In this document: piece after piece, positions 2,004 to 62,640 of the stretch
How the letters are laid out: the number at the start of each line of letters is the position of its first letter
How positions within the stretch are numbered: the stretch's first letter is position 1
From: Caerostris darwini
Lineage: Eukaryota
Reading direction: 5' to 3'
Length of the DNA: 64,000 nucleotides
Assembly: GCA_021605075.1 (NCBI GenBank)
Contig: BPLQ01015363.1
Span: 963,513 to 1,027,512 of the forward strand
The notes under the pieces: model-generated
The model's database searches: none
Told to the model about the DNA's origin: nothing
The model's input: the letters and a program-made list of their open reading frames with translations, nothing else
Program-made: the position numbers and the translations under genes

Positions 2004-3212
2004 CACACTGAAGTGACAAAAGTCATGGGATAGCAATATGCAAATTTTCAGATGGCAGTAGCATCGCGTAGAACAGGTATAAATGCGCAGAGCTTTCATT
2101 TCTGTTCAAGTTATTCATGTGAAGAGGTTTCGACGTGATGATGACCGCACGACGGGAATTAACAGACTTTGAACGCGAAATGTTAGTTGGAGCTAGACGC
2201 ATGGGTCATGCCATTTCGGAAATCGTTAGGGAATTCAACATTCCCAGATCCGCTGTGTCAAGAGTGTGCCGAGAGTATGAAATTTCAGGCATAACATCCC
2301 ACCATGGACAGCGCAGTGGTCGACCGCCTGCACTTAACGACCGAGACCGGCGACGTCTGCAAAGAGTCGTAAATTCTAACAGACAAGCAACACTGCGTCA
2401 AATAACCGCAGAAATCAATGTGGGACGTACAAGGGACTTGTCTGTTAGAACTGTGCGGAGAAATTTGGCTTTCTTGGGCTATTCCAGCAGAAGACCGACT
2501 CGAGTGCCTTGACTGACAGAACGACATCGCTTGCAGCGACTCTCGTGGGCACGTGAGCATATCGGTTGGTCCCTAGATGAATGGAAAACCGTGGCCTGGT
2601 CCGAGGAGTCATGATTTCAGTTGGTAAGAGCTGATGGTAGTGTTCGAGTGTGGCGCAGACCCCACGAAGACATGGACCCAAACTGTCAGCAAGGCACTGT
2701 TCAAGCTGGTGGTGGCTCCGTAATGGTGTGGGCTGTTTTTTCATGGCATGGACTTGGTCCTCTGGTGCGACTGGACCGAATATTGACTGGAAATGCTTAT
2801 GTTCAGCTACTTGGAGATCACTTGCAGCCATTCATGGAATTCATGTACCCAAACAACGATGGGATTTTTATGGATGACAATGCGCCATGTCACCGGGCCA
2901 CAACTGTTCGCGATTGGTTTGAAGAACATTCTGGACAATTCCAACGAATGATCTGGCCACCTAGATCACCCGACATGAATCCCATCGAGCATTTATGGGG
3001 CATCATCGAGAGGTCTGCTCGTGCCCAAAATCCTGCACCATCAACGCTTTCACAATTATGGACGTCTATCGAGACAGCATGGCTCAATATTCCTGCAGAA
3101 GACTTCCAACGACTTGTTGAGTCCACGCCACGTCGAGTTGCTGCACTTCGCCGGGCGAAAGGAAGGCCGACACGATATGAAGAGGTATCCCATGACTTTT
3201 GTCACTTCAGTA
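2004..3212 (+). mobile_element. Defective Tc1/mariner-superfamily DNA transposon (Tc1-like, family A) lying in intron 0 of the WD40 gene.
   Basis: It has ~24-bp terminal inverted repeats: cactgaagtgacaaaagtcatggg at 2006–2030 and its reverse complement at 3188–3211. Both ends abut (TA)n tracts, consistent with a TA target site. The internal transposase ORF shows a paired-like HTH N-terminus and the Tc1 catalytic C-terminus (DDNAPCH…SPDMNPIEHLW). Confidence 0.85.
2135..3180 (+). pseudogene. Pseudogenised Tc1-like transposase.
   Basis: The reading frame is split between ORFs 2135–2512 and 2621–3247, indicating a frameshift. There is an in-frame TGA within …VAWSEES*FQLVRADG…, and the first catalytic motif reads WSEES rather than FSDES. 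Confidence 0.8.
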
Positions 3213-34564: not shown

Positions 34565-35848
34565 ACACTCATGTCCATAAATTAAGGATAATGAAGTTCA
34601 GGCAAAGAAAGAGACAGAAGCAAAACAAATTTGACTTATTTGTAAAGTCTATTTATTAAACAAAAGGTAAAGAGCAAAACAGATGCTATATGTTTGACAT
34701 AATTAATAAAAATTGCGATTTTTACTCCCTGGAGCAAATTTCAAAAAAGAACCTATTTACAAAAAACAGTATAACATGGTTAGTATGATGGTTAATATGG
34801 AGTATGTCTCCCGGACGATGCAATACAGGCCTTACAACGCCTAGGCATGCTGAGTATCACATTATCAATCTGATCTTGGGGAATATTACACCACACATCA
34901 AGCAATGCCCTCCGAAGTTCCGGTTGACAGGTGGGAGGGGGTTGACGGGCTGCAATTCGTCGGCCAAGCATATTCCACACATGCTCTATTGGATTCAAGT
35001 CCGGTGAGTATGCTGGCCATTCCATACGGGTGATATCCTCCAATTGAAGGCATTCGTCTACAGTGTTTGCACGGTGAGGACGGGCGTTGTCATCCATAAA
35101 CCTGGTGGTAACGGGTACCTGGCGCTCTCCATATGAAAGTCCGGCGAGAATCAGACTGCAAACTAAACCTGGACTCGTCGGAAAACATCACACCAGACCA
35201 CTGTTGCGGTGTCCACAATGCATGCTCTCTACTCCAGGTTAATTGCAGGCGACATTGAGTTGCGGTAAGTGGAACACATCTGACAGGCCTACGAGCATAT
35301 AGACCAATGTGCCCTAAGCGTCTGTACACGGTCTGCTTTGAAACTGTCGTACCGGTAGCTGAAGAGAGCGAACGAGACAGGTCTGATGCTGTGCTCCGTC
35401 TGTTTCTTTTGGCAGTAACTGCTAAATACCGGTCCTCATTCAGCGTTGTAACTCGGGGGCGACCTGTGCTGTAACATCTACTCACGTTACCATCATCTTG
35501 GAATCGTTGCCAAAGCCTGGAGATGACACTCTGGGCGATTCCAAGTTCCTCGGATACTTCCAGCTGGGTACGTGCACATTCCAGTCGTCCGATAATTCTA
35601 CCACGTAAAAAATCATCCAAATGCGTTTAAAGCGCTTGTGAACAATTTTACTTCTTTGCCACCATTCCTTATATACCTCTCTCTAACACTCTCGTCATTG
35701 TGACGTACTATCCGCGCCATATGGTGGTTTCATGTAATTTGCATATTCTTCTTCAAGATGTGTGTGATAATTCTACAGGTGAAATTTTTATTTTAGAGTT
35801 CAATTTCTGTGTGATTCTGAATTATCCTTAATTTATGGACATGAGTGT
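34565..35848 (-). mobile_element. Tc1-like DNA transposon, family B (DD34E). This is an internally deleted copy with a TA target-site duplication.
   Basis: The 28-bp terminal inverted repeat TACACTCATGTCCATAAATTAAGGATAA is present at both ends. TA dinucleotides flank it at 34563–64 and 35849–50. Transposase fragments lie between the repeats. Confidence 0.85.
34792..35620 (-). pseudogene. Tc1 family B transposase remnants, comprising an N-terminal HTH portion (35090–35620) and a C-terminal catalytic portion (34792–35097).
   Basis: The remnants read …LEVSEELGIAQSVISRLWQRFQDDGNVSR…VMFSDESRFSLQSD… and MDDNARPHRAN…WPAYSPDLNPIEHVW. About 190 bp is deleted relative to copy C between RAPGTRYHQ and FMDDNARPH. 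The initiator ATG is lost (TTG). Confidence 0.8.
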
Positions 35849-41891: not shown

Positions 41892-42483
41892 GTATGTTTT
41901 TGTTGTAATTAATTTATTAAAAATTTCGTATTCATGTTTTGTTTTTAAATATTTACTAGCTATAGATAATATTTAAAAAATTTTATAATTGGTTAAACAC
42001 CATACTTCATTTTACATTACTGAATACTTGATGTATGCTACTTTTTGAATATATTATTTTTTTTATTAATTTTTTTTTTTTTTTTTTTAAATTAATATGC
42101 GTTCTTTCACTAATGGTCAGACTATATGAAGATATATTTGAAGATGTATAAATTTAAAATTCACATGTTATTTTAATTATCATAAATATTTAAATACTTA
42201 CTCTTCATATATTATACTCATTAATAATTTATGAGAAAACCATTTTTCCTTTTTATATATTTTGCATGTCCTCCTTTGTTGTTAACTTTTCTCATTGAAA
42301 AATAGTATTTAGTGGATGAAAAATTTTGTGAGAAAAATAATTTTTAATAATATAGAATTTGTTCATATGATTTGATCATCAGTCATTATAATTATTTAAA
42401 TAAGGTATTTAATAAAGCTAGCTTCACTTAGTCAATCTATGCTATTTGTGCTCAAGATAGCTAATGTTTACTTTTAGAATAAT

Positions 42484-42779
42484 GGGGCCTGATGGTTCAG
42501 TGGCTAACACTCTGGCGCTCGGTTCCACAGGTTTCGGGTTCGATTCCCGGTGGGGCCATGGATGTTTGTAGTGGTTCGGAGTCCAATTTAAACCGTAGGT
42601 CCCGGTCTAATAGTACCGTAGAGCGTTGTGGGGGGGTAGTGTTACTCACGTCTGTAGCATATCTTCAAGCTATACGTGCTCCTGGGTAGTGTTAAATGAG
42701 TAACAATGTTGCAGTCCTTGTTTATTGCATAAAGATTAACTGTCTCTGTATTGCCAGCTGCATTGGAACAACAACAACC
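42484..42779 (+). mobile_element. tRNA-derived SINE, copy A, lying in intron 21.
   Basis: The tRNA-like head carries A box TGGTTCAGTGG and B box GGTTCGATTCC. The conserved core reads CCATGGATGTTTGTAGTGGTTCGGAGTCC…GTAGGTCCCGGTC. It is flanked by an 11-bp direct repeat tttagaataat (42473–83 and 42780–90). Confidence 0.8.
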
Positions 42780-43014
42780 TTTAGAATAATAATATTGAAT
42801 CTAATAACTCGAATCTCTATCCACAACTTATAAGTGAAAAATGATAAAGTATAAATTCCTTCTTAGCATTAAACATATATATTTTTATACCCTTAAGTTT
42901 GTCTTGTTTTCCAACTGAAATTGCGTATCAAAACTTTTTTAACAAATTTGTACTTATTAGTCATGTGTTTATATTTAATTTTTTTGAGGTTAAATAAATG
43001 AGTTTGTTTTCTAG

Positions 43015-47989: not shown

Positions 47990-48606
47990 TCTGCTTTACG
48001 TTTAGGACAATTAATGTCTGTGGCATTTTGATTTGCACTACAGTATTTGGGGATTTTGGCCGAGCACGATTCTATGGAATGTTGACAATACAGTATTCAC
48101 AGGCAATTGAATTTTAACAATTTGCTGTTGGACGAGTATATGAATGACATTTTTTACACTGACGAGGTTTATCATAAAACAGAGCAATTTTTTGTTGTGT
48201 TAACCATAATAGGACATCATCTGGCAAAATCATACCTAAAGTAGTAACTAAAACTGGAGTGGAAATGGTAGGCGTTGTCCGTTTTCCTGCAAATCTGCGA
48301 AGTTCTGTGACGGAGAAGTTTTCTTCTTCTAATTCCGTTACAAGTTCAGCGAGTGATATATCTGTAGATATACTATGCAGTAAAATCTGATAGAGATTTT
48401 TTCAGGGTAAAGGGAGGCCTTGATTGGAAACCCAGGATGGCTTTCATGATTCTTAGTTCTCTTGCGGTTTCAAAATGGACAGTTGATAAAAGTAGTTTTC
48501 CATGTCTAGTAATACACATATAATCAATATGTTTTAAGGTGGGGATTTTTGAAGCTATGTTGAGAACTCTGGGATGGGCTTTCGGTATTGCGCCGTTTGG
48601 AACTTC
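47990..48606 (-). mobile_element. gag/ORF1-like repeat unit, copy a, from a non-LTR retrotransposon. This is the best preserved copy.
   Basis: Minus-strand translation gives EVPNGAIPKAHPRVLNIASKIPTLKHIDYMCITRHGKLLLSTVHFETARELRIMKAILGFQ… followed by …ISTDISLAELVTELEEENFSVTELRRFAGK…PVLVTTLGMILPDDVLLWLTQQKIALFYDKPRQCKKCHSYTRPTANC and …NCPKRKA. It is homologous to copies b and c. Confidence 0.6.
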
Positions 48607-50760: not shown

Positions 50761-51227
50761 CTTCTAAATTCAAAACACTCAACCGCCTTTCTTTTAGAGA
50801 CAGCTGCATACTTTATCATATTCAAAAGAACTGCAAACTGATACTTCTTTATCTACCTATTATGTTACAGAATACGAAATAACTCAATTGTTTAAACAGA
50901 ACGCCTTTGAAACCCAACAAATGATTAGAAAAATCTATCAAACACAAGCTTCAGTTTTCCACGCTTCCATTAAAACTTCTGCATGAAAAGCTTTTGCATC
51001 TGCCTTTCCCTCCTCTACCAAGCAATAACGAATCTATTAATATTAATATTAAGCAATAATGAAACTATCTACTCCCACCAAGTACAACTCCAATAACTGG
51101 ATTGAAAGATAAAAGAAAAAATATTAAAAACAAAAATTGACTACTAGGACACAATCGTATCAAACTTTACAGTTCCTGGTATTCAATTTTTAATCCTCTT
51201 TTCTTATCATAAATGATTTAATAACTT

Positions 51228-51300
51228 ATTAAATCGTTTAAGATAAGATAATTTAATAAAACAATGGATAATTTAATAAAACAATAGATAATTTAATAAG
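51228..51300. repeat. Short tandem repeat (gataatttaataaaacaat)n, about 3 copies.
   Basis: The repeat is directly visible in the sequence. Confidence 0.7.
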
Positions 51301-52255
51301 ATTATTTAATAAAAAATGAATTTATTGTTAGAACTAAAAATGAGATAGGTTAATAGCTGGATAAAAATGAGATAAGTTAAAAATAGCTGGATTTCTCAGA
51401 AATTAAAAAAAAAAAAACTCTTTTTAATAAGAACATGAAACATAAAGAAACTAAACAAATCATAGCTTTTATGTGCTTATGGGGATTTGTTAAATTTTTT
51501 AAAACAAATTGCAGTTTATTTTTATGAGGCTTTGAGTAATGCTTTTACGGATAATAGATATTGGGGTCGTTTATTTTGTTTACTTTTTATTACCGAAAAC
51601 AGTCGCAAACACTTTTTATTACAGTCTGCAGCCGTAAAATATAAAAAAGGAAGCGTTTTAGGTTTTCCTGTTCTTTTCTACTTTTCTAGTACTTTTTTTA
51701 GTTGCATTCATAAAACATTCAAGATGAAAAAATAGTTTTGCAACTTATTATATATACATTTGTTAATATTTTGTTTTGAAGATAATTAATATATTCTCAA
51801 ATGTTATTAAAGAAAAATTGAGAGTTTATTAATATATTAATATTTGGTATTCATTTTGCATATATTTTCTTGATTTGTTTTATAATAAGGGTATTTACAA
51901 TAATATAAAAAATTATTAATATGTATTTGGGATTCTTTATATATATAAACGTATAAATATGTAATATATTTCGTGTATTCGCCAAGGCGACTTGCTGTTA
52001 TTGGTAACCATAGGAAAATACCATGCGCACTAATACATTTACATCGCGTAGTGAGTGATACATGACTTTCTCATTCGAGAATTGATATTGTTATTTATTT
52101 TGTTTAAAGATTTTTTTTATCCCTTTTGTCTTTTACTTAGTTTGTCTTTTCAATTTTCTTTTCTCAAAGTGGAAGAGCGTTTTCATTTTTATTTAAGTTT
52201 TCATTTAATCACAGGCCACTACATATAAATATAATTTAATAATTAATTTTAAAAG

Positions 52256-52288
<33 letters not shown>

Positions 52289-52500
52289 GTATAGGTCTGC
52301 CTTGTTAATTTAACGCTTATTATGTTTTTTTTATTATTTAAATAAATAAATATAAAATACAAAATTTTAAAATAAGTATTAAAATGGCTATAAAACTGGA
52401 TAAAAATGGCTGTAAACCGGATATGACGTCGTACATTTTCTCTCGCATTTTTCTCGAAAACTATGGGTCGTAGAGGTAACAGTGCAATAACCGCATAGTT

Positions 52501-53528
52501 ATGGTACAAAGGAAGCATTTGGATGATTTTTTACGTGATAGAATTATCGGACGACTGGAATGGGGACGTACCCAGCTGGAAGTATCCGAGGAATTCGGAA
52601 TCGTCCAGAGTGTCATCTCCAGGCTTTGGCAACGATTCCAAGATGATGGTAATGTGAGTAGATGTTACAGCACAGGTCGCCCCCGAGTTACAACGCCGAA
52701 TGAGGACCGGTATTTAGCAGTTACTGCCAAAAGAAACAGACGGAGCACAGCATCAGACCTGTCTCGTCAGCTCTCTTCAGCTACCGGTACGACAGTTTCA
52801 AGGCAGACCGTGTACAGACGCTTAGGGCACATTGGTCTATATGCTCGTAGGCCTGTCAGATGTGTTCCACTTACCGCAACTCACTGTCGCCTGCAATTAA
52901 CCTGGAGTAGAGAGCATGCATTGTGGACACCGCAACAGTGGTCTTGTGTGATGTTTTCCGACTAGTCCAGGTTTAGTTTGCAGTCTGATTCTCGCCGGAC
53001 TTTCATATGGAGAGCGCCAGGTACCCGTTACCACCAAGAGAACACCATTGAACGACACGGTTACGGTGGTGCAGGATGGCTTGTTTGGGGAGGAATTATT
53101 CTTGGTTCCAGAACTGACCTGCATGTTCAGAGTGTAACGATGATAGGCCACATCTATCGGGATGTCATTCTGGAACAACATGTACGTTAGTTTCGGGCTC
53201 CATGGGTGCTGAATTTCTGTTTATGGATGACAACGCCCGTCCTCACCGTGCAAACATTGCAGACGAAAGCCTTCAATTGGAGGATATCACCCGTATGGAT
53301 TGGCTAGCATACTCACCGGACTTGAATCCAATAGAGCATGTGTGGGATATGCTTGGCCGACGAATTGCAGCCCGTCAACCCCCTCCCACCTGTCAACCGG
53401 AACTTCGGAGGGCATGGCTTGATGAGTGGTGTAATATTCCCCAAGATCAGATTGATAATTTGATACTCAGCATGCCTAGGCGTTGTAAGGCCTGTAGTGC
53501 ATCGTCCGGGAGACATACTCCATATTAA
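52501..53528 (+). pseudogene. Tc1 family B transposase, inactivated.
   Basis: An in-frame TAG follows VMFSD (ccgacTagtcc in this copy versus ccgacGagtcc in copy B). There is a frameshift before …MGAEFLFMDDNARPHRAN…SPDLNPIEHVW. The D-to-E spacing is 34 residues by my count. Confidence 0.8.
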
Positions 53529-53549
53529 CCATCATACTAACCATGTTAT

Positions 53550-53830
53550 TATATATTGGGCCTGATGGCTGAATGGCTAGCGCTCTGGCGTTCGGTACCA
53601 TAGGTACCGGGTTCAAATCCCGGCTTTGCCATGGGTGTTTGTAGTGGTTCGGAATCCGCTTTAAGCCGTAGGTCCCGGTCCTGTTAGGATCGTAGAGCGC
53701 TGCGGGGGCATTGTTACTTCGCGTCCGTGGCTTACCATCAAGTTACACGCGCTCCCTGTTTAACATCGTAACATCGGTGCAGCCCTTATGGCGAAGATCA
53801 CGGTCTATTTGCCTGCTGCATTAGAAGGAA
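53550..53830 (+). mobile_element. tRNA-derived SINE, copy B, inserted into the 3' UTR of Tc1 copy C.
   Basis: It belongs to the same family as 42484–42779. It is flanked by a perfect 14-bp target-site duplication, actaaccatgttat, at 53536–49 and 53831–44. The orthologous position in Tc1 copy B (34740–34800) is uninterrupted. Confidence 0.85.
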
Positions 53831-54244
53831 ACTAACCATGTTATACTGTTTTTTGTAAATAGGTTCTTTTTTGAAATTTGCTCCAGGGAGTAAAAATCGT
53901 AATTTTTATTAATTATGTCAAACATATAGCATCTTTTTTGCTCTTTACCTTTTGTTTAATAAATAGACTTTGCAAATAAGTCAAATTTGTTTTGCTTCTG
54001 TCTCTTTCTTTGCCTGAACTTCATTATCCTTAATTTATGGACATGAGTGTAAAAAGGGGAGGTGAAAGGGCCTCATAAGTGGAATAGCCGAGGGCCTCTT
54101 TTCATCTAAATCCGGCCCTGGCTGTATTAGATGAAGATTCTGAAAGGAAAGCATTAAAGCATGGGTGGCCAACCCGCGTCCCGCCTTGAATATTTTTCCG
54201 GCCCGTGAGATTTATCACACTCTTACAAATATATTTATTTTATA

Positions 54245-54720
54245 ATGGCCAAAGTAGTGAAAACAGCTGCTTTTGAAAGCCGATTCACAAATTTAGAGTT
54301 AGACAAATACAACAAAATTTTTGAAGTATATTCATCTCCTTTTCATGTTGAAATCGAATCGGCCCCAGAATATTTCCAAATGGGACTGGTTAACTTACAA
54401 TGCAATATTGAATTGAAAACATTTTTTAAACATCAGAATCAAAAATAAATTTTATAACACTTACGTCACAAAAGAGAAATTTTCCAATCTGAAAAATCTA
54501 GCACAAAAAGTTGTTAGCACTTTTGGCTAAACTTCCACCAGCGAATCGGATTTTTTTTCCCCCGTTCGAAAATGAAATTGACCAAACTCAAAACACATTC
54601 AAACATAATGGACGCTAACCTACCACACCAATTAGGATGTGGAATACCCAAATTGTTGAGGTCGATTTGCAGAAGTCAAGTGAAAGAGTGGAGGAACAAA
54701 TATCGCACTAGTAAAATAAA
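54245..54720 (+). mobile_element. Fragment of a hAT-superfamily (Charlie/ZBED-like) transposase C-terminal dimerisation domain, degraded.
   Basis: The fragment reads …SPFHVEIESAPEYFQMGLVNLQCNIELKTFFK… followed by …FSNLKNLAQKVVSTFG, then …MKLTKLKTHSNIMDANL…. This matches the hAT C-terminal pattern NPF.V…P…Q.ELI.LQ.D..LK..F…YP.L…A..L..FGSTY.CE..FS.M..IK.K.R..L. Stop codons and frameshifts are present. Confidence 0.5.
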
Positions 54721-55379
54721 TATTTTTTTAATGACTTCATTTTTTTCTATTTCATTTATATTTATACAGTTTTTATATTTCATTTTTTAGTGTTATATAT
54801 TTCTTTTACAATGTGCTTTTAGTATCATTATTATTATATTATCTATGTTCACATGTTAGAATAGTGATAACTTATTATGTTTCAATTTTTCACTCCGAAA
54901 AATGTCTATAGAGGGTATAAATCTAATATGGGAATATATAATTTTATATGCAGCCCGCGTAGTTATGATGCATTTCCAAAATGGCCAACGAGATCATTTG
55001 GGTTGGGGAGAGAGAGAATTAGAGAATTTGACGAATTGTCTTGTCCAGTTTAAAAGAGAAAAATTAAGAATAGAAATAGAGACATAATTATTTTTCTTTA
55101 TTTTATATTTATTTAAAGTTATTATTATTATTATTAAAAGTAATAAAATAATTGCGAGAAACAGAGCAATTAAAACAAAAAGAGAAAGTAAAAGAAAAGA
55201 AAAGAAAAAAAAATTAAATTTATTCATATAATGCAAGAACAAATTATTTAAGCATTAAATTATTTAAATATTTTTATTTATTTATTTTACGTATTAATTA
55301 ATTAAAAGTTATTTAAAAATCTAAACAAGGAGAAAAAAAACAAAAAAAAACTGTAAAAGGCAATTCGCTGAGAAAGTCG

Positions 55380-55690: not shown

Positions 55691-55858
55691 GAAGTGGGGG
55701 TTTGGTTTGGTTTGTCGCTCTACGGTCATCTTGTGCACACGAGGGCTAAACAGATCAGGATCTACAGTTTAAAGTGGATTCCGAACCACTAACATACATC
55801 CATGCCAACGCCAGGATTCGAACCTGAAGCCTGTGATTCAATGGTCAATAGTAGTGGG
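55690..55858 (-). mobile_element. tRNA-derived SINE, copy E. The head and core are present and the tail is divergent.
   Basis: The reverse complement reads …ggcttcaggttcgaatcctggcgttggcatggatgtatgttagtggttcggaatccactttaaactgtagatcc…, which is the B box plus the family core. Confidence 0.65.
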
Positions 55859-56789
55859 GGAAACGGATTGAGACATATATACCTTCATATTACACAGTGC
55901 TGCAAATTATAAAGCAGGAAATTTCATTACATTTTTAAAAACATTGTAAAATTTTAAATTTCGTTCAGAAATGTATTTTTATTTCTATCACAGTGTTTTT
56001 CAGGTAAAAAAAAATACATAAAAAAAAATCATTTAATGCAATTTGAATATTTTTTTTATTTACTATTAAATTTACATAATGCAAAAATATACATTACTAT
56101 GATACAACAAACTTATTGAGAAATTTATCATTGCAGATTTTATTAATGTAAAGGATTAATATAACTCAATTTATAAAGTGACCACGAATTATTTTGTTTA
56201 AAACATTCTCGAATTTTTTATTTTATATATAAGAATCTTTCAAGCGGTATATTTTATTAATTTCCATTGATCTTTACTGATGGCTATAAGAAAAATTTTA
56301 CACGTGTAATTAATTAATATGTAAAATTTTATTTGGAAATTTAAAAGAAATTTATTTATTAAGAAAAACGATTTTTATATTAAAAATAAAAGTAACACTT
56401 TTCCTCACTAAATATTTTTTAGTAAAAAAAAATATATTTGTATATTTAATTTTTTTTTTTTTTTTTTTTTGTCAAGTTTGATAATTAGTAGCCACATAAT
56501 CAAAGAACGAGAAGAGTCAGCATTCAGATACAAATATGATCCACTGTCACAATGAACACTTATTTTGATAAACATTCCTAGTTTGCATCAGTTGTATAAA
56601 AATTCTGTATTTATGAAACATTAGTAGAGCATTAAAAAAATATCATAGAATAAACATGAAAAACATAATAGAAATAAATGAAATGAAAGTATTAAAAAAT
56701 TGAGATTAAAAAATAATTTAAATGTCTAGTTACTTCGGATTATCACATATGTAGATTATTTTGTACAATATTTTTGCGACTACAAATTA

Positions 56790-57013
56790 TGTATAGAAAT
56801 AGCCCAAAGTTATTCACTCAGCACTACCTAGAAGGTGCGTATAACTTGAAGATAAGCTACGGACGCGGAGTAACACTACCACAACGCTCTATGATCCTGT
56901 TAGACCGGGACCTACGGTTTAAAGTGAATTCCGAACTACTACAAACATCCATGGCACCACCAGAACTCGAACCCGAAACCTGAGGTACAGAGCCACTCTA
57001 CCATTCAGGCCCT
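56790..57013 (-). mobile_element. tRNA-derived SINE, copy D, on the minus strand.
   Basis: The reverse complement reads agggcctgaatggtagagtggctctgtacctcaggtttcgggttcgagttctggtggtgccatggatgtttgtagtagttcggaattcactttaaaccgtaggtcccggtc…. ORF 56774–56983 lies inside it and is spurious. Confidence 0.8.
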
Positions 57014-57616: not shown

Positions 57617-58260
57617 AGGTTCCGAACGACGCGATACCAAAAGCACATCCCAGAGTTCTAAAGGAAAAGATATCGTCAAAAGTAACTACCTTGAAATATA
57701 TTGACTGTATCCGTATCACTCGACGAAACGAATCCTATCTACTACTCACTTTGATACAGCCAAAGAATTGGCAAAAATAAAAGCCATTAGGGGAGTTCCA
57801 GTCAAAGCATCTCTTTACCCAGAAAAGATCGCCACCAGATTTCTGCTTTATAACATTCCTACAGATATATCACTTGAAGAACTTGCATCAGAATTGGAAG
57901 AGGAAAATAATATATCTGTCACAGAACTCATGCGATTTGCAGGAAAAGGAGCAGCACTGACGTCTTCCACCCCAGTTTTAATTACTGTATTAGGTACAAT
58001 CTTGCCAGAAAATGCTAGATTATGGCTTACAACAAAAAATATCTCTGTTTTATGATAATCCCCGTCAGTGTCGTAATGTTATTCCTATGCTCACCCAACA
58101 GCAAATTATAAAAATTCAATGGCCTGGGAATTCTGCAGCGATAGACATATTATAGGCTCGTGCTCAACTCAAATTCCTAAATGTATCAATTGCAGTGAAA
58201 CACATAAAACCACTGATGTTAATTGTCCCAAACGTAAAGCCTAAGAAAAATTTCTGCAAT
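57617..58260 (+). mobile_element. gag/ORF1-like repeat unit, copy c.
   Basis: The translation reads …VPNDAIPKAHPRVLKEKISSKVTTLKYIDCIRITRR… and ORF 57768–58055 reads …NIPTDISLEELASELEEENNISVTELMRFAGKGAALTSSTPVLITVLGTILPENARLWLTTK…. A knuckle IPKCINCSETHKTTDVNCPKRKA follows. Confidence 0.6.
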
Positions 58261-58520: not shown

Positions 58521-60139
58521 ATAAACTGCAAAGTGATTATGGATATAGAGTTCTGATTTACTCTTGGATATTTGATATGCCAGATGATGCTTATTATAAG
58601 ACACAACAGTACTTTAATTTCTACGAAAAATCTAGTAATCCTGTAAGCTATGGGGGTACCCTCACTTTTTCTATCAGAGGTTATTATTTCTTTTTCACTT
58701 TTTATTTCAAGTACTAGTTGTGCTTTATATTTTCTAATTATCGTTCAACTGTTGAAATATTATGGTCTGTTAGATCTGAAGTTTTACCCATTTTTCTTCT
58801 TTTTCAAATTTACTTTTTTTATTTATATTCTTTTGGTTGATAGAAAGTACGAGCAACGATTCTTGTGTTTTAACAGGAATTTGTAAGCCGTCATAAGCAA
58901 CGAATTCAAAAATTCCGAGTTTTAGAATAAAGGTTTCATTTCCACTTTTTAAAATTTTTTTTATCTGTTGTATATTTTAAAAAGCATTTGGATAAATTGA
59001 GATAAAACAGCATCAGCGAGCATACAACTCAAAGTACCAAGTCGCATGTGCTTTAGTAAAAACGAAAACAAAACGGGAAACGAAACTTTTGTAGAAGGGA
59101 ATTCCCCTGATTTATTATCTGTGATAAGGTTTTAAATATAAATTTAACGACCAGACGCAGCTTATCATTTTCGTGTTGAATGTACGCGAAAAGTAGGAAA
59201 AAAAAGTAAATTGCTGTAAGTTAAATTGATATTCTTATTAGTTTTTAAAAATTTATCTTAAACTATTTCATATTGTATTATGTGCACTATTGTTTGTATA
59301 GTATATATTCAAAGTAATGCTATTTCTTTTGCACATTATTTAAACAGAAGAAAAATTGTTCCACATTTACTCTGCATTATAAATTAATCTATTAATGCTA
59401 TTAAAAAAACTATAATTGAAATTTTCTTTGAATTGGTATATAATAACAATAATTCAAATATAATAATACTTTAATCGAATTTTGCAACACTATGCGAATA
59501 AAAACCATTTTTTGGGGGTTTTAAACAATTATTTAATAGCATATTTATTTAATTGTAAAAGAAGTTGTTCTTCGTGTTATTGTAATATAGTAAAAAGTTT
59601 TATTAAATTTCAAGAATAGAATGCATTAATATTTAAATTAGGAATTTATGTACAAAGACTTTCATGTATATATTTAATGAGACATTAAATGAGTTTTAGA
59701 AAGTTTATTAGAAATGCATGTTTTTCAAATTACTGTTTAAATATCAAGTTGAATTAATTTATTACAAAAATGTTCTTAAAATATCTTATATTGTTCTGTG
59801 GATTATAAAAATCTTATAAGATTTATGCTCACTTATGGGCAGTTTTATCTTGAATTATTTGAATAAATTTCAAAATTACTATGCAAGTTATTTGGTTGAT
59901 AAACGAGTAATTTCAGTTTTCACAAAAAATACATTGTAAAAACTGAACATACTTTCTTGTAAGCACAATATTTCATAGTTCAATTTTTTTTAATTTTAAT
60001 TTTTTGAAATTGTAGAATTATTTTTTTGTGTTATTATTTCAACTGAAAATTTTAATATGCTTAAAAAAAAAATTGTAATGCCTCAATTTATTAAAAACAA
60101 TTTTCTCAAAATTTATTATATATGGAATATTAGATAACT

Positions 60140-60431
60140 GGGGCCGGATGGCCGAGTGGCTAGCACTCGGTACCACAGTTTTCGGGTTTGGGTCCCGACT
60201 GTGCCATGGATGTTTGTAATGGTTCGGAACCCACTTTAAACCATAGATCTCGGTCTAATTTTGATCATAGAGCATTGTGGGGGTATTGTTACTCTGAGTC
60301 TGTAGCTTTTCTTTAAGCAACATGCCCCCCTGGGTAGTGCTAAGTGAGTAAAGTCGGTGCAGCCTTTGTTCATGACATAAAAGACGACTGTCTAATATGT
60401 ATTTGCCAGCTGCAGTAGAAACAAAACATGA
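60140..60431 (+). mobile_element. tRNA-derived SINE, copy C.
   Basis: The head reads ggggccggatggccgagtggctagcactcggtaccacagttttcgggtttgggtcccg, followed by the core ccatggatgtttgtaatggttcggaacccactttaaaccatagatctcggtc. The flanks (tagataact and ttgataact) form an approximate target-site duplication. Confidence 0.8.
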
Positions 60432-62640
60432 TTGATAACTATAATAACACACATTCACATATGTTTTAATGACAAAACTATATAACTAATCAAAACAGCT
60501 TGAATATTGCTTATGAATTAATTTAACTTTATTTATTATGATTTTATTTTGAGAAGTGAAGTATAAATTGATCATTATTATATTTTTATTGAATATGCTA
60601 AAGTTTTATTTTATTAAAATTTTATTAATGTGTTAGTGTCAGAATAATTTAATTTATGAATGGACATTGAAGCTTCTTTTTCTAAATTACCATTTTTCAA
60701 TCTTAATTTTTTTTTTTACTTTAACAATAATTTTACTTCAAAGGTCATGTTAATGGTAATATTTTTAATATTTAAGTACTTTGTTATGACTTAAAAACAA
60801 AAATTAAATTACAACTTATGAAAAAATGTCTTGATGTGTACCATGCTAGGGATATGTTGGGACAGCACTGAAATAAGAATGGAGCATATTGATAATGTTA
60901 TGTTTTTATAATTCTATTTTTATATTTTTTTATTTGTATAACTAATAATATTTAACTTAAAAAAATGATTGATTGGTTAAAATGACTAATAAAAATGATT
61001 TACATTTGCAAAATAATTTATTAATGATTAAATTAATTATTCACAGTGTATTTTCAATTATATAAGGACATCTTGACTAGGCAACATTTTAATGTTATAG
61101 AGGATAGTGTTGATGTCACATACCTCATTGGTGGTGGAGGTTATAATGCAATGATTTTTATATCAACTGTACTGACATGTTCTGTGAGAATAAATTTTTT
61201 GTTTTTTCTCCTTGGAAAGCACACAATCTCTTTATTAAACACTTTTAATCTGACCTATATAATGCACTTATTTATTTGTAGCAGAATTTTCGATATAGTA
61301 TTTTAATACGACTCAAGTTTTTTATTGCATCTCACCTACTTATGGGTTCATCATTTTAAGTTTTTAGTATGTAACAATGACATTATAACAACTCTAATTA
61401 GATACTAGTATCCAAATTAAGATTCACACTTCTGCCAGGCTAATTATTAACATAAGCATAAAAAATTTAGCTTCAATATGTTTATTGTACACTATAATCT
61501 TTTAATAGTAATGTATTGGGATTGTGTCAATTTTCCCCCATAAATCAGTGTCCCAATGGATCATTTTCTAAATGGATGCTTATTATTCATTTTCTAGAGC
61601 ACATGGAACTATGATTTGTATTGGAAAAGAAAGTTTAATTGTTTTTATAGACATGGTATATTTCTCAAATTAATTACTTTTCTTTCTTTAATTGAAATGT
61701 TTATATTCACAGAATTAAGAAAAATTGTTTTATATGACAAAAAAATTTTATCTTGCTCTTAAAGCAGCAGTCTTCAAGGAATAGTTGAAATTGCAATTAC
61801 AAGCATGTCCTTTATGGGTCATCATATAATTTTTTACAGTTTCTATTTTTCAATATTTGGTAAATTGTAGCCTTTGTCCTAATGTGGCCTCTCTTCCTCT
61901 AGTAATGAAGTTCTACCACTATTTCTGAAAATCTGGAAAAGGCTTTGGCTTTTATTTGCTTAATTATTCGCCTAACTTGTTCGTCATAAAATTTCCTTGA
62001 AATTGCTGTGAATCTTTTCTGTGATGATTATTAAAAAATTTTTAATGATTTATTTGTATTCAATTATAATAATATTTTTTGCTTTAATTATATTTATGTT
62101 TGCCAGTTTCAGTGATCTCAAAATTTATTAGTTGAGTCACACAAATAGAAATTAAAATTTAAGTAGTATATCTAGTGAAGATTAAAAATTATGCTTTAAG
62201 TTATTTTTTTTGTTTTTTTTTTGTTTGCAGTAACATTGCACTTTCTGAGTTGTTCTACTTTATATTATATAACAAAAAAATACATTTTACATTTCACATT
62301 TATGATTCTTCAAATCAGTTTTGTTTTCTAAAGCATGTTAATCATCTTTTTTTATAAATTTCATGAAATGTGTTTAGTTTTACTTTTTTAAAGTGTTTTC
62401 AGGTTTTTTAATCATTGGCATTTTGTAACAGGTTGTGAAGATGAAAAATGAAATATTATTAATGCATGCTAAGAAAAATATAATAAACAACTGAGAAAAA
62501 AAAAACTATTCAATATTTTACTTAAACTCTTCACTTTCCTTTCTTAAACAATTACTATTTATTCAATTTCTATATTTTATAATTTATTTGAATCTTAAGT
62601 AGCTAATCTTCTTAGAAAATAAATTGCTGTATATGCATTT

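Follow-up and report, generated by a model that had tools for sequence, protein, structure and literature searches.

The window, by which we mean the whole 64-kb stretch of DNA that was analyzed, contains two elements of a Tc1 family that we call Tc1-B. One of them, copy C on the forward strand, is interrupted shortly after its transposase frame by 281 bp (53550-53830) enclosed by two copies of the 14-mer ACTAACCATGTTAT. Most of this insert is a SINE (copy S1). The other element, paralog P, lies on the reverse strand and has the corresponding site empty. The features of the two elements and of the insert are as follows, with the basis of each reading in parentheses.

52480-54049, forward strand: Tc1-B copy C, the host element (BLAST to the paralog; alignment to family consensus contigs)
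52501-53528, forward strand: decayed DD34E Tc1 transposase frame (translations, tblastn)
53536-53549, forward strand: left 14-bp target-site duplication, ACTAACCATGTTAT (direct reading, alignment)
53550-53557, forward strand: TATATATT, eight additional bases that precede the SINE 5′ end (family-copy alignment, flanks)
53558-53830, forward strand: SINE proper, copy S1, 273 bp (family-copy alignment)
53559-53631, forward strand: tRNA-like head of S1 (Rfam RF00005, box scan)
53632-53691, forward strand: conserved central core, GGGTGTTTGTAGTGGTTCGGAATCCGCTTTAAGCCGTAGGTCCCGGTC..., 60 bp (alignment)
53778-53820, forward strand: candidate 3′ stem-loop with the arms TGCAGC (53778-53783) and GCTGCA (53815-53820) (RNAalifold)
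53821-53830, forward strand: S1 tail, short and A-rich, TTAGAAGGAA (sequence)
53831-53844, forward strand: right 14-bp target-site duplication, ACTAACCATGTTAT (direct reading, alignment)
53849-53854, forward strand: T6 run in the Tc1 flank, a putative Pol III terminator (sequence)
34566-35847, reverse strand: Tc1-B paralog P, with the empty site at 34771-34784 (BLAST, inverted-repeat reading)

Homology of copy C to the family consensus contigs begins at CAGTGCAATAACCGCA (52480); the element is truncated by about 200 bp at its 5′ end and has thereby lost the left inverted repeat. Its right 27-bp inverted repeat is present (54023-54049) and is followed by TA at 54050-54051. The transposase frame carries an in-frame TAG (FSD*SRF) and a frameshift near 53187-53217, and its stop codon (TAA, 53526-53528) lies 7 nt before the target-site duplication. 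The reconstructed Tc1-B protein contains the motifs FSD(E)SRF, FMDDNARPH, and SPDLNPIE, and 34 residues separate its second D from the E; judged by its sequence, Tc1-B belongs to the Tc1 DD34E group of the Tc1/mariner superfamily. The protein was 93% identical to Tcb1/Tcb2-like transposases of Araneus ventricosus containing PF01498 and PF13358 and 82 to 89% identical to many transposases of Trichonephila clavipes and Stegodyphus mimosarum, so that a spider is the most likely source of the window. Upstream of copy C, the truncation point (52480) is adjoined by approximately 190 bp of AT-rich sequence unrelated to Tc1-B (52287-52479), which is itself preceded by a (TA)n microsatellite (52256-52286); the truncation may stem from a deletion or from another insertion. 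The window also holds a third Tc1-like element from a different family (2141-3178, forward strand), with 30% amino acid identity to Tc1-B and with Pfam HTH_Tnp_Tc3_2/DDE_3 fragments in broken frames.

Paralog P is bounded by 27-bp terminal inverted repeats (CACTCATGTCCATAAATTAAGGATAAT; 34566-34592 and 35821-35847) and is flanked by TA at either end; it has suffered internal deletions of 182 bp and 41 bp. The sequences flanking copies C and P are dissimilar beyond the TA, which indicates that the two elements arrived by independent transpositions. A segmental duplication of the Tc1 locus was ruled out, as the flanks of C and P diverge immediately beyond the TA.

The 14-bp duplication and the 281-bp insert had already been claimed in the first-pass annotation, and direct reading gave exactly the same coordinates (53536-53844). 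Elsewhere in the 64-kb window, ACTAACCATGTTAT occurs in a single place (34771-34784, reverse strand). The empty site that had been proposed for the paralogous Tc1 at 34740-34800 is thus present as one uninterrupted 14-mer. When, along the lines proposed there, we aligned 53500-53880 to the reverse-complemented paralog (34730-34820), the flanks were identical and were separated by one gap, the ends of which fell on the 14-mer. A BLAST comparison of positions 51000-55000 with the window returned three collinear blocks matching P: 52515-53036 with 35624-35103 (97.3% identity), 53219-53549 with 35101-34771 (97.0% identity), and 53831-54051 with 34784-34564 (98.6% identity). Homology of copy C to P stops at 53549 and resumes at 53831. 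Since the last two blocks overlap on P by exactly the 14-mer (34771-34784), the site is filled in copy C and empty in P.

The 14-bp repeat by itself is statistically nondecisive. Perfect direct repeats of at least 14 bp at a spacing of 150 to 450 bp were found six times in the window, when a first-order Markov simulation predicts about 1.9; apart from ACTAACCATGTTAT, the five pairs consist of low-complexity AT strings in this 73%-AT sequence. The insertion is decisive because the ends of the repeat match the insertion boundaries to the base when copy C is compared with 15 uninterrupted copies. Its significance therefore stems from this coincidence of boundaries and from the nature of the insert, which is a member of an independently dispersed repeat family.

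Fourteen of the uninterrupted copies come from outside the window. This external set consisted of Tc1-B copies or collapsed contigs, with 6 of the 14 originating from three named spider genomes: four genomic copies from A. ventricosus (L008, L011, L012, and L013) and single copies from T. clavipes (L014) and S. mimosarum (L015). The rest comprised seven collapsed Tc1-B contigs of approximately 1.5 kb from independent read sets (L001 to L007) and an additional read-set contig (L016). All 14 sequences aligned straight over the reconstructed empty site and none contained the SINE. The site reads CATCAT-ACTAACCATGTTAT-ACTG in these copies, with a few substitutions at most in the more distant ones. 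Together with P, this gives 15 empty sites versus 1 filled site (copy C), from which we conclude that the empty site is ancestral and that the 281 bp are an insertion specific to copy C. The filled and empty pair described in the first-pass annotation is therefore genuine. The converse possibility, that most Tc1-B copies carry the SINE-like segment, is contradicted by its absence from all 15 other copies. As a separate observation, positions 53440-53950 of the window were 96 to 97% identical to the Tc1-B copies of A. ventricosus and T. clavipes (L008 and L011 to L014), even with the 3′ noncoding part included. Identity at this level across Araneus and Trichonephila copies may reflect a recent horizontal spread among spiders or a close relationship of the hosts.

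The inserted SINE differs in composition from its surroundings: S1 has a GC content of 54.6%, versus 27% in the window, and contains 21 CpGs (CpG observed/expected ratio of 1.04). Its 5′ end, GGGGCC(T/G)GATGG, was defined by aligning the family copies. Between this end and the left duplication lie the eight bases TATATATT, which have no equivalent in the siblings S2 and S4. They may represent a 5′ leader transcribed from the source copy or filler from second-strand joining.

The head of S1 (first 73 nt) matched the Rfam tRNA model over its full length with 21.6 bits (E = 0.052), and the head of S2 did so with 25.5 bits (E = 0.0042). Both matches come from small-region E-value searches and do not reach the Rfam gathering score (29), which is unsurprising if the head derives from a tRNA that has decayed. 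When Rfam was run at gathering thresholds, the entire window gave no match, nor did a search of S3 to S5 up to an E value of 1. An A box (TGGCTGAATGG, 53566-53576) and a B box (GGTTCAAATCC, 53610-53620) are located at SINE positions 9 and 53, with spacing as in tRNA genes. Relaxed ARAGORN runs on the head pointed to tRNA-Arg or tRNA-Pro as the parent, depending on the register. Conservation was highest in the core, with a mean pairwise identity of 83% among seven copies, and lower in the head (64%) and the tail (48%).

The 3′ part of the SINE contains a candidate stem. RNAalifold analysis of S1, S2, and S4 retained a 6-bp stem (UGCAGC...GCUGCA) in all three copies, with zero covariation. The stem is followed by UUAGAA and then by a short simple repeat in S2 and S4, whereas S1 has just GGAA and no clear repeat. 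The tails accordingly read ...GCTGCATTAGAA and then GGAA in S1, (CAA)n in S2, and ACAAAACATG in S4, where the simple-repeat tail is ACAAAACAUG. The T6 run begins 4 nt past the right target-site duplication and could end Pol III transcripts of S1 (53849-53854). We found no terminal inverted repeats in S1. All six reading frames contain stop codons, leaving no coding capacity, and the predicted RNA fold of the entire SINE was no more stable than that of shuffled sequence (z = -0.52). The tRNA-model scores, the A and B boxes, the lack of inverted repeats and of an open frame, and the dispersed relatives described below all bear out the earlier identification of the insert as a tRNA-derived SINE.

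Four diverged relatives of S1 (S2 to S5) are present in the window, all of them outside any Tc1.

42484-42779, forward strand: S2, full length, with a (CAA)n-like tail (alignment; tRNA model, 25.5 bits)
55700-55860, reverse strand: S5, of a shorter SINE family, with a decayed or truncated head (alignment)
56837-57011, reverse strand: S3, with head, core, and body; 3′ part diverged or lost (alignment, ARAGORN)
60140-60430, forward strand: S4, full length (alignment)

S2 is flanked by a perfect 11-bp duplication (TTTAGAATAAT, 42473-42483 and 42780-42790), and S4 is flanked by a duplication of 10 to 11 bp with one indel (ATTAGATAACT on the left, 60129-60139; ATTGATAACT on the right, 60431-60440). 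The sole "tRNA gene" called by ARAGORN in the window, a 97-nt tRNA-Arg(TCG) at 56915-57011 on the reverse strand, is the head of S3. We rejected a bona fide tRNA gene as a reading of the SINE head, which scores below the gathering threshold, occurs in multiple copies, and is accompanied by 200 bp of extra body. The window also has a 67-nt inverted repeat pair (48319-48385 and 57841-57907, 76% complementary) that was detected with a repeat finder and is possibly another dispersed repeat.

S5 has its core in common with S1 but differs from it in the 3′ part, which terminates in (CAAAC)n. In this it resembles short elements on contig L010, one of two contigs (with L009) that a metagenome scan identified as bearing a related short SINE, which is not of the S1 subfamily. 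Each contig contains two elements of approximately 175 bp that share the head and core with S1 and continue into a 3′ part of the form ...AGCCCTCGTGTGCAAAAAATGRCCGTA...(CAAAC)n. These elements are at 2041-2215 and 2637-2815 in L010, and L009 has the same elements on the opposite strand. The two contigs are from two different metagenomes and appear to represent one AT-rich eukaryotic locus, given the identical spacing and identical match statistics. Across the family, the target-site duplications measure 14 bp (S1), 11 bp (S2), approximately 10 to 11 bp (S4), and 9 bp (one of the L010 elements).

The SINE reaches a density of five copies per 64 kb in the window. It was absent from approximately 143 kb surrounding Tc1-B copies in three other spiders (about 98 kb in A. 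ventricosus, 21 kb in T. clavipes, and 24 kb in S. mimosarum), and this difference suggests that the family is lineage restricted and that the window derives from a spider other than these three. The core motif had no match among the viral contigs scanned, and a spurious 62-amino-acid frame spanning the SINE, searched against 5.8 billion predicted proteins, yielded no SINE-bearing candidate.

There is direct evidence for a copy-and-paste insertion and its 14-bp staggered-cut duplication, for the ancestral empty site, for a modular tRNA-like anatomy without inverted repeats and with a Pol III-type internal promoter at the 5′ end, and for a dispersed family whose duplications vary in length. We are highly confident that a SINE was retroposed into a resident Tc1 copy and that the 14-bp repeat is a genuine target-site duplication. 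According to the model that we propose, Pol III would have transcribed SINE RNA from the internal A and B boxes, and a LINE-encoded endonuclease and reverse transcriptase would have copied this RNA at a staggered break by target-primed reverse transcription. The bottom strand would have been nicked first, at the left boundary of the 14-mer, and the top strand second, 14 bp downstream; fill-in of the 14-bp stagger would have produced the perfect ACTAACCATGTTAT duplication. The 273-bp tRNA-derived SINE landed in the 3′ noncoding part of the resident Tc1/mariner copy, 7 nt past the transposase stop, and the eight bases TATATATT would have been captured at the 5′ junction.

Among mechanisms, we infer that LINE-driven target-primed reverse transcription has the best support. 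The variable duplication length (14, 11, approximately 10 to 11, and 9 bp) fits this process, and the non-poly(A) tail with its preceding stem suggests a "stringent" LINE partner that would recognize the 3′ end of the SINE. Neither the window nor the fetched loci yielded a partner LINE whose 3′ end matched, and dependence on a LINE is for that reason an indirect conclusion. The attribution of the duplication to LINE machinery in the first-pass annotation consequently holds as far as the duplication lengths are concerned, which vary as expected, and is tempered with respect to the LINE itself.

We weighed three other explanations. According to one, the SINE was acquired by a Tc1-B master copy that was still active, and this composite later transposed to the present position; the nesting would then not place the SINE insertion after the arrival of copy C here. 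Such a course of events is conceivable in that the insertion lies in noncoding sequence and alone would not abolish the activity of the element, but the SINE is found in none of the 15 other Tc1-B copies and S1 looks young, with its CpGs intact. We consider it extremely unlikely. The probability seems closer still to negligible that the 281 bp are ancestral to Tc1-B and were precisely lost from P and the other copies by recombination or slippage between the 14-bp repeats. Direct repeats are able to mediate precise deletions, and other deletions have occurred in these elements (182 and 41 bp in P; the 5′ truncation in copy C). Against such a loss stands the single 14-mer in 15 out of 15 other copies, which include collapsed contigs built from many reads and copies from three spider genomes. 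In addition, the segment is homologous to a repeat family residing at four non-Tc1 sites with duplications of their own, and a tRNA-like Pol III module would be out of place in a Tc1 consensus.

The insert could also be a MITE or a similar nonautonomous DNA transposon, or DNA picked up in the repair of a double-strand break, an origin to which the missing poly(A) tail, the eight unexplained bases at one junction, and the failure to find a partner LINE would lend themselves. We nevertheless judge it very unlikely. Transposases make duplications of fixed length, whereas those of this family vary (14, 11, approximately 10, and 9 bp); this variation and the lack of terminal inverted repeats led us to reject a MITE or other DNA transposon. 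Furthermore, the tRNA-like head with its A and B boxes is always at one defined end, the siblings have simple-repeat 3′ tails, and S5 is without an intact 5′ head, which could be due to either 5′ truncation or decay. Two further element classes were dismissed as identities of the insert: a solo LTR, because the insert lacks TG...CA ends and has too long a duplication, and a Helitron, because the insert has a target-site duplication.

With retroposition of S1 into copy C as the preferred reading, the locus also bears on relative timing. Since S1 interrupts Tc1 sequence, its insertion must be younger than that sequence. S1 is probably the youngest SINE copy in the window, as implied by its perfect duplication, its retained CpGs, and its high GC content. 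The CpG observed/expected ratio is 0.71 in S2 and 0.60 in S4 (1.04 in S1), the GC content of these two copies is 46 to 48%, and they show CG-to-TG/CA changes at sites corresponding to CpGs in S1. In a 27%-GC genome, this gradient of CpG and GC decay from S1 to S2 and S4 could serve as a relative clock. The SINE copies are mutually 66 to 74% identical, compared to 97 to 98.6% for the two Tc1-B copies, which implies that SINEs of this family were probably active both before and after the spread of Tc1-B. Part of the SINE divergence may be due to differences between subfamilies. The first-pass annotation had taken the nesting to mean that the SINE transposed after the Tc1 family had spread. This conclusion stands for the S1 insertion, which postdates Tc1 copy C, but not for an order of one family after the other, given the older-looking SINE copies. 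A single nesting event orders two insertions, and the family-level statement was thus overgeneralized.

Nested elements, tRNA-derived SINEs, and the duplications left by target-primed reverse transcription are textbook material, and the locus changes no concept. Elements of the Tc1-B family are, moreover, already annotated in three spider genomes. What the locus offers is a fully resolved example of a retroposon within a DNA transposon, for which 15 other copies document the empty site. It can also act as an annotation anchor by providing the exact SINE termini, the duplication length, and the extra 5′ bases. For the ordering of transposable elements it contributes one data point, namely, a SINE subfamily that was still mobile after a young Tc1 family (97 to 98% identity) had arrived. 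As for the SINE, no paper dedicated to spider SINEs turned up in a literature search, and a full-text search for substrings of the core gave no usable match; the family may be undescribed. The putative new SINE domain is defined here as the 60-bp core common to the approximately 290-bp and approximately 175-bp families, which have different 3′ parts. We suggest, tentatively and with more doubt than conviction, that these elements form an undescribed, lineage-restricted group of spider SINEs in which this core is a new highly conserved domain and at least one subfamily has been active very recently.

Chronologies based on nested filled and empty sites have been used for Alu and L1 and in "transposition-in-transposition" analyses. 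Our locus follows the same logic, with a younger element interrupting an older one and an uninterrupted paralogous copy serving as the empty site. It differs from family-level chronologies in that it offers one nesting, whereas the ordering of families requires many reciprocal nesting counts. On the side of the host element, the closest relatives of Tc1-B are the spider Tc1 (DD34E) elements annotated as "Tcb1/Tcb2 transposase" in A. ventricosus, T. clavipes, and S. mimosarum. Tc1-B resembles Tc1 (DD34E) elements in its 27-bp terminal inverted repeats and TA duplications and in a transposase of approximately 342 amino acids with HTH_Tnp_Tc3_2 and DDE_3 domains and DD34E spacing. Unlike intact Tc1 elements, both Tc1-B copies in the window are dead, owing to stop codons, a frameshift, deletions, and 5′ truncation.

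tRNA-derived SINEs have a modular build of head, core, and tail, and some are grouped into superfamilies by conserved central domains (PMC4824008, PMC5804259). The SINEs of the "stringent type," which have non-poly(A) tails, are mobilized by CR1, L2, or RTE-like LINEs (PMC4824008, PMC5804259). The S1 family is like these stringent-type SINEs in having a variable 3′ region with a candidate stem, a short simple-repeat tail in S2 and S4, and duplications of variable length. The superfamilies with highly conserved domains include CORE, V, Deu/Nin, Ceph, Meta, Inv, Pln, and Mesc (PMC4824008, PMC5804259). As in these superfamilies, the Pol III head of the S1 family is followed by a core that is better conserved than the head (83% versus 64%), and the core is common to two families with different 3′ parts, a likeness in the build of the elements.
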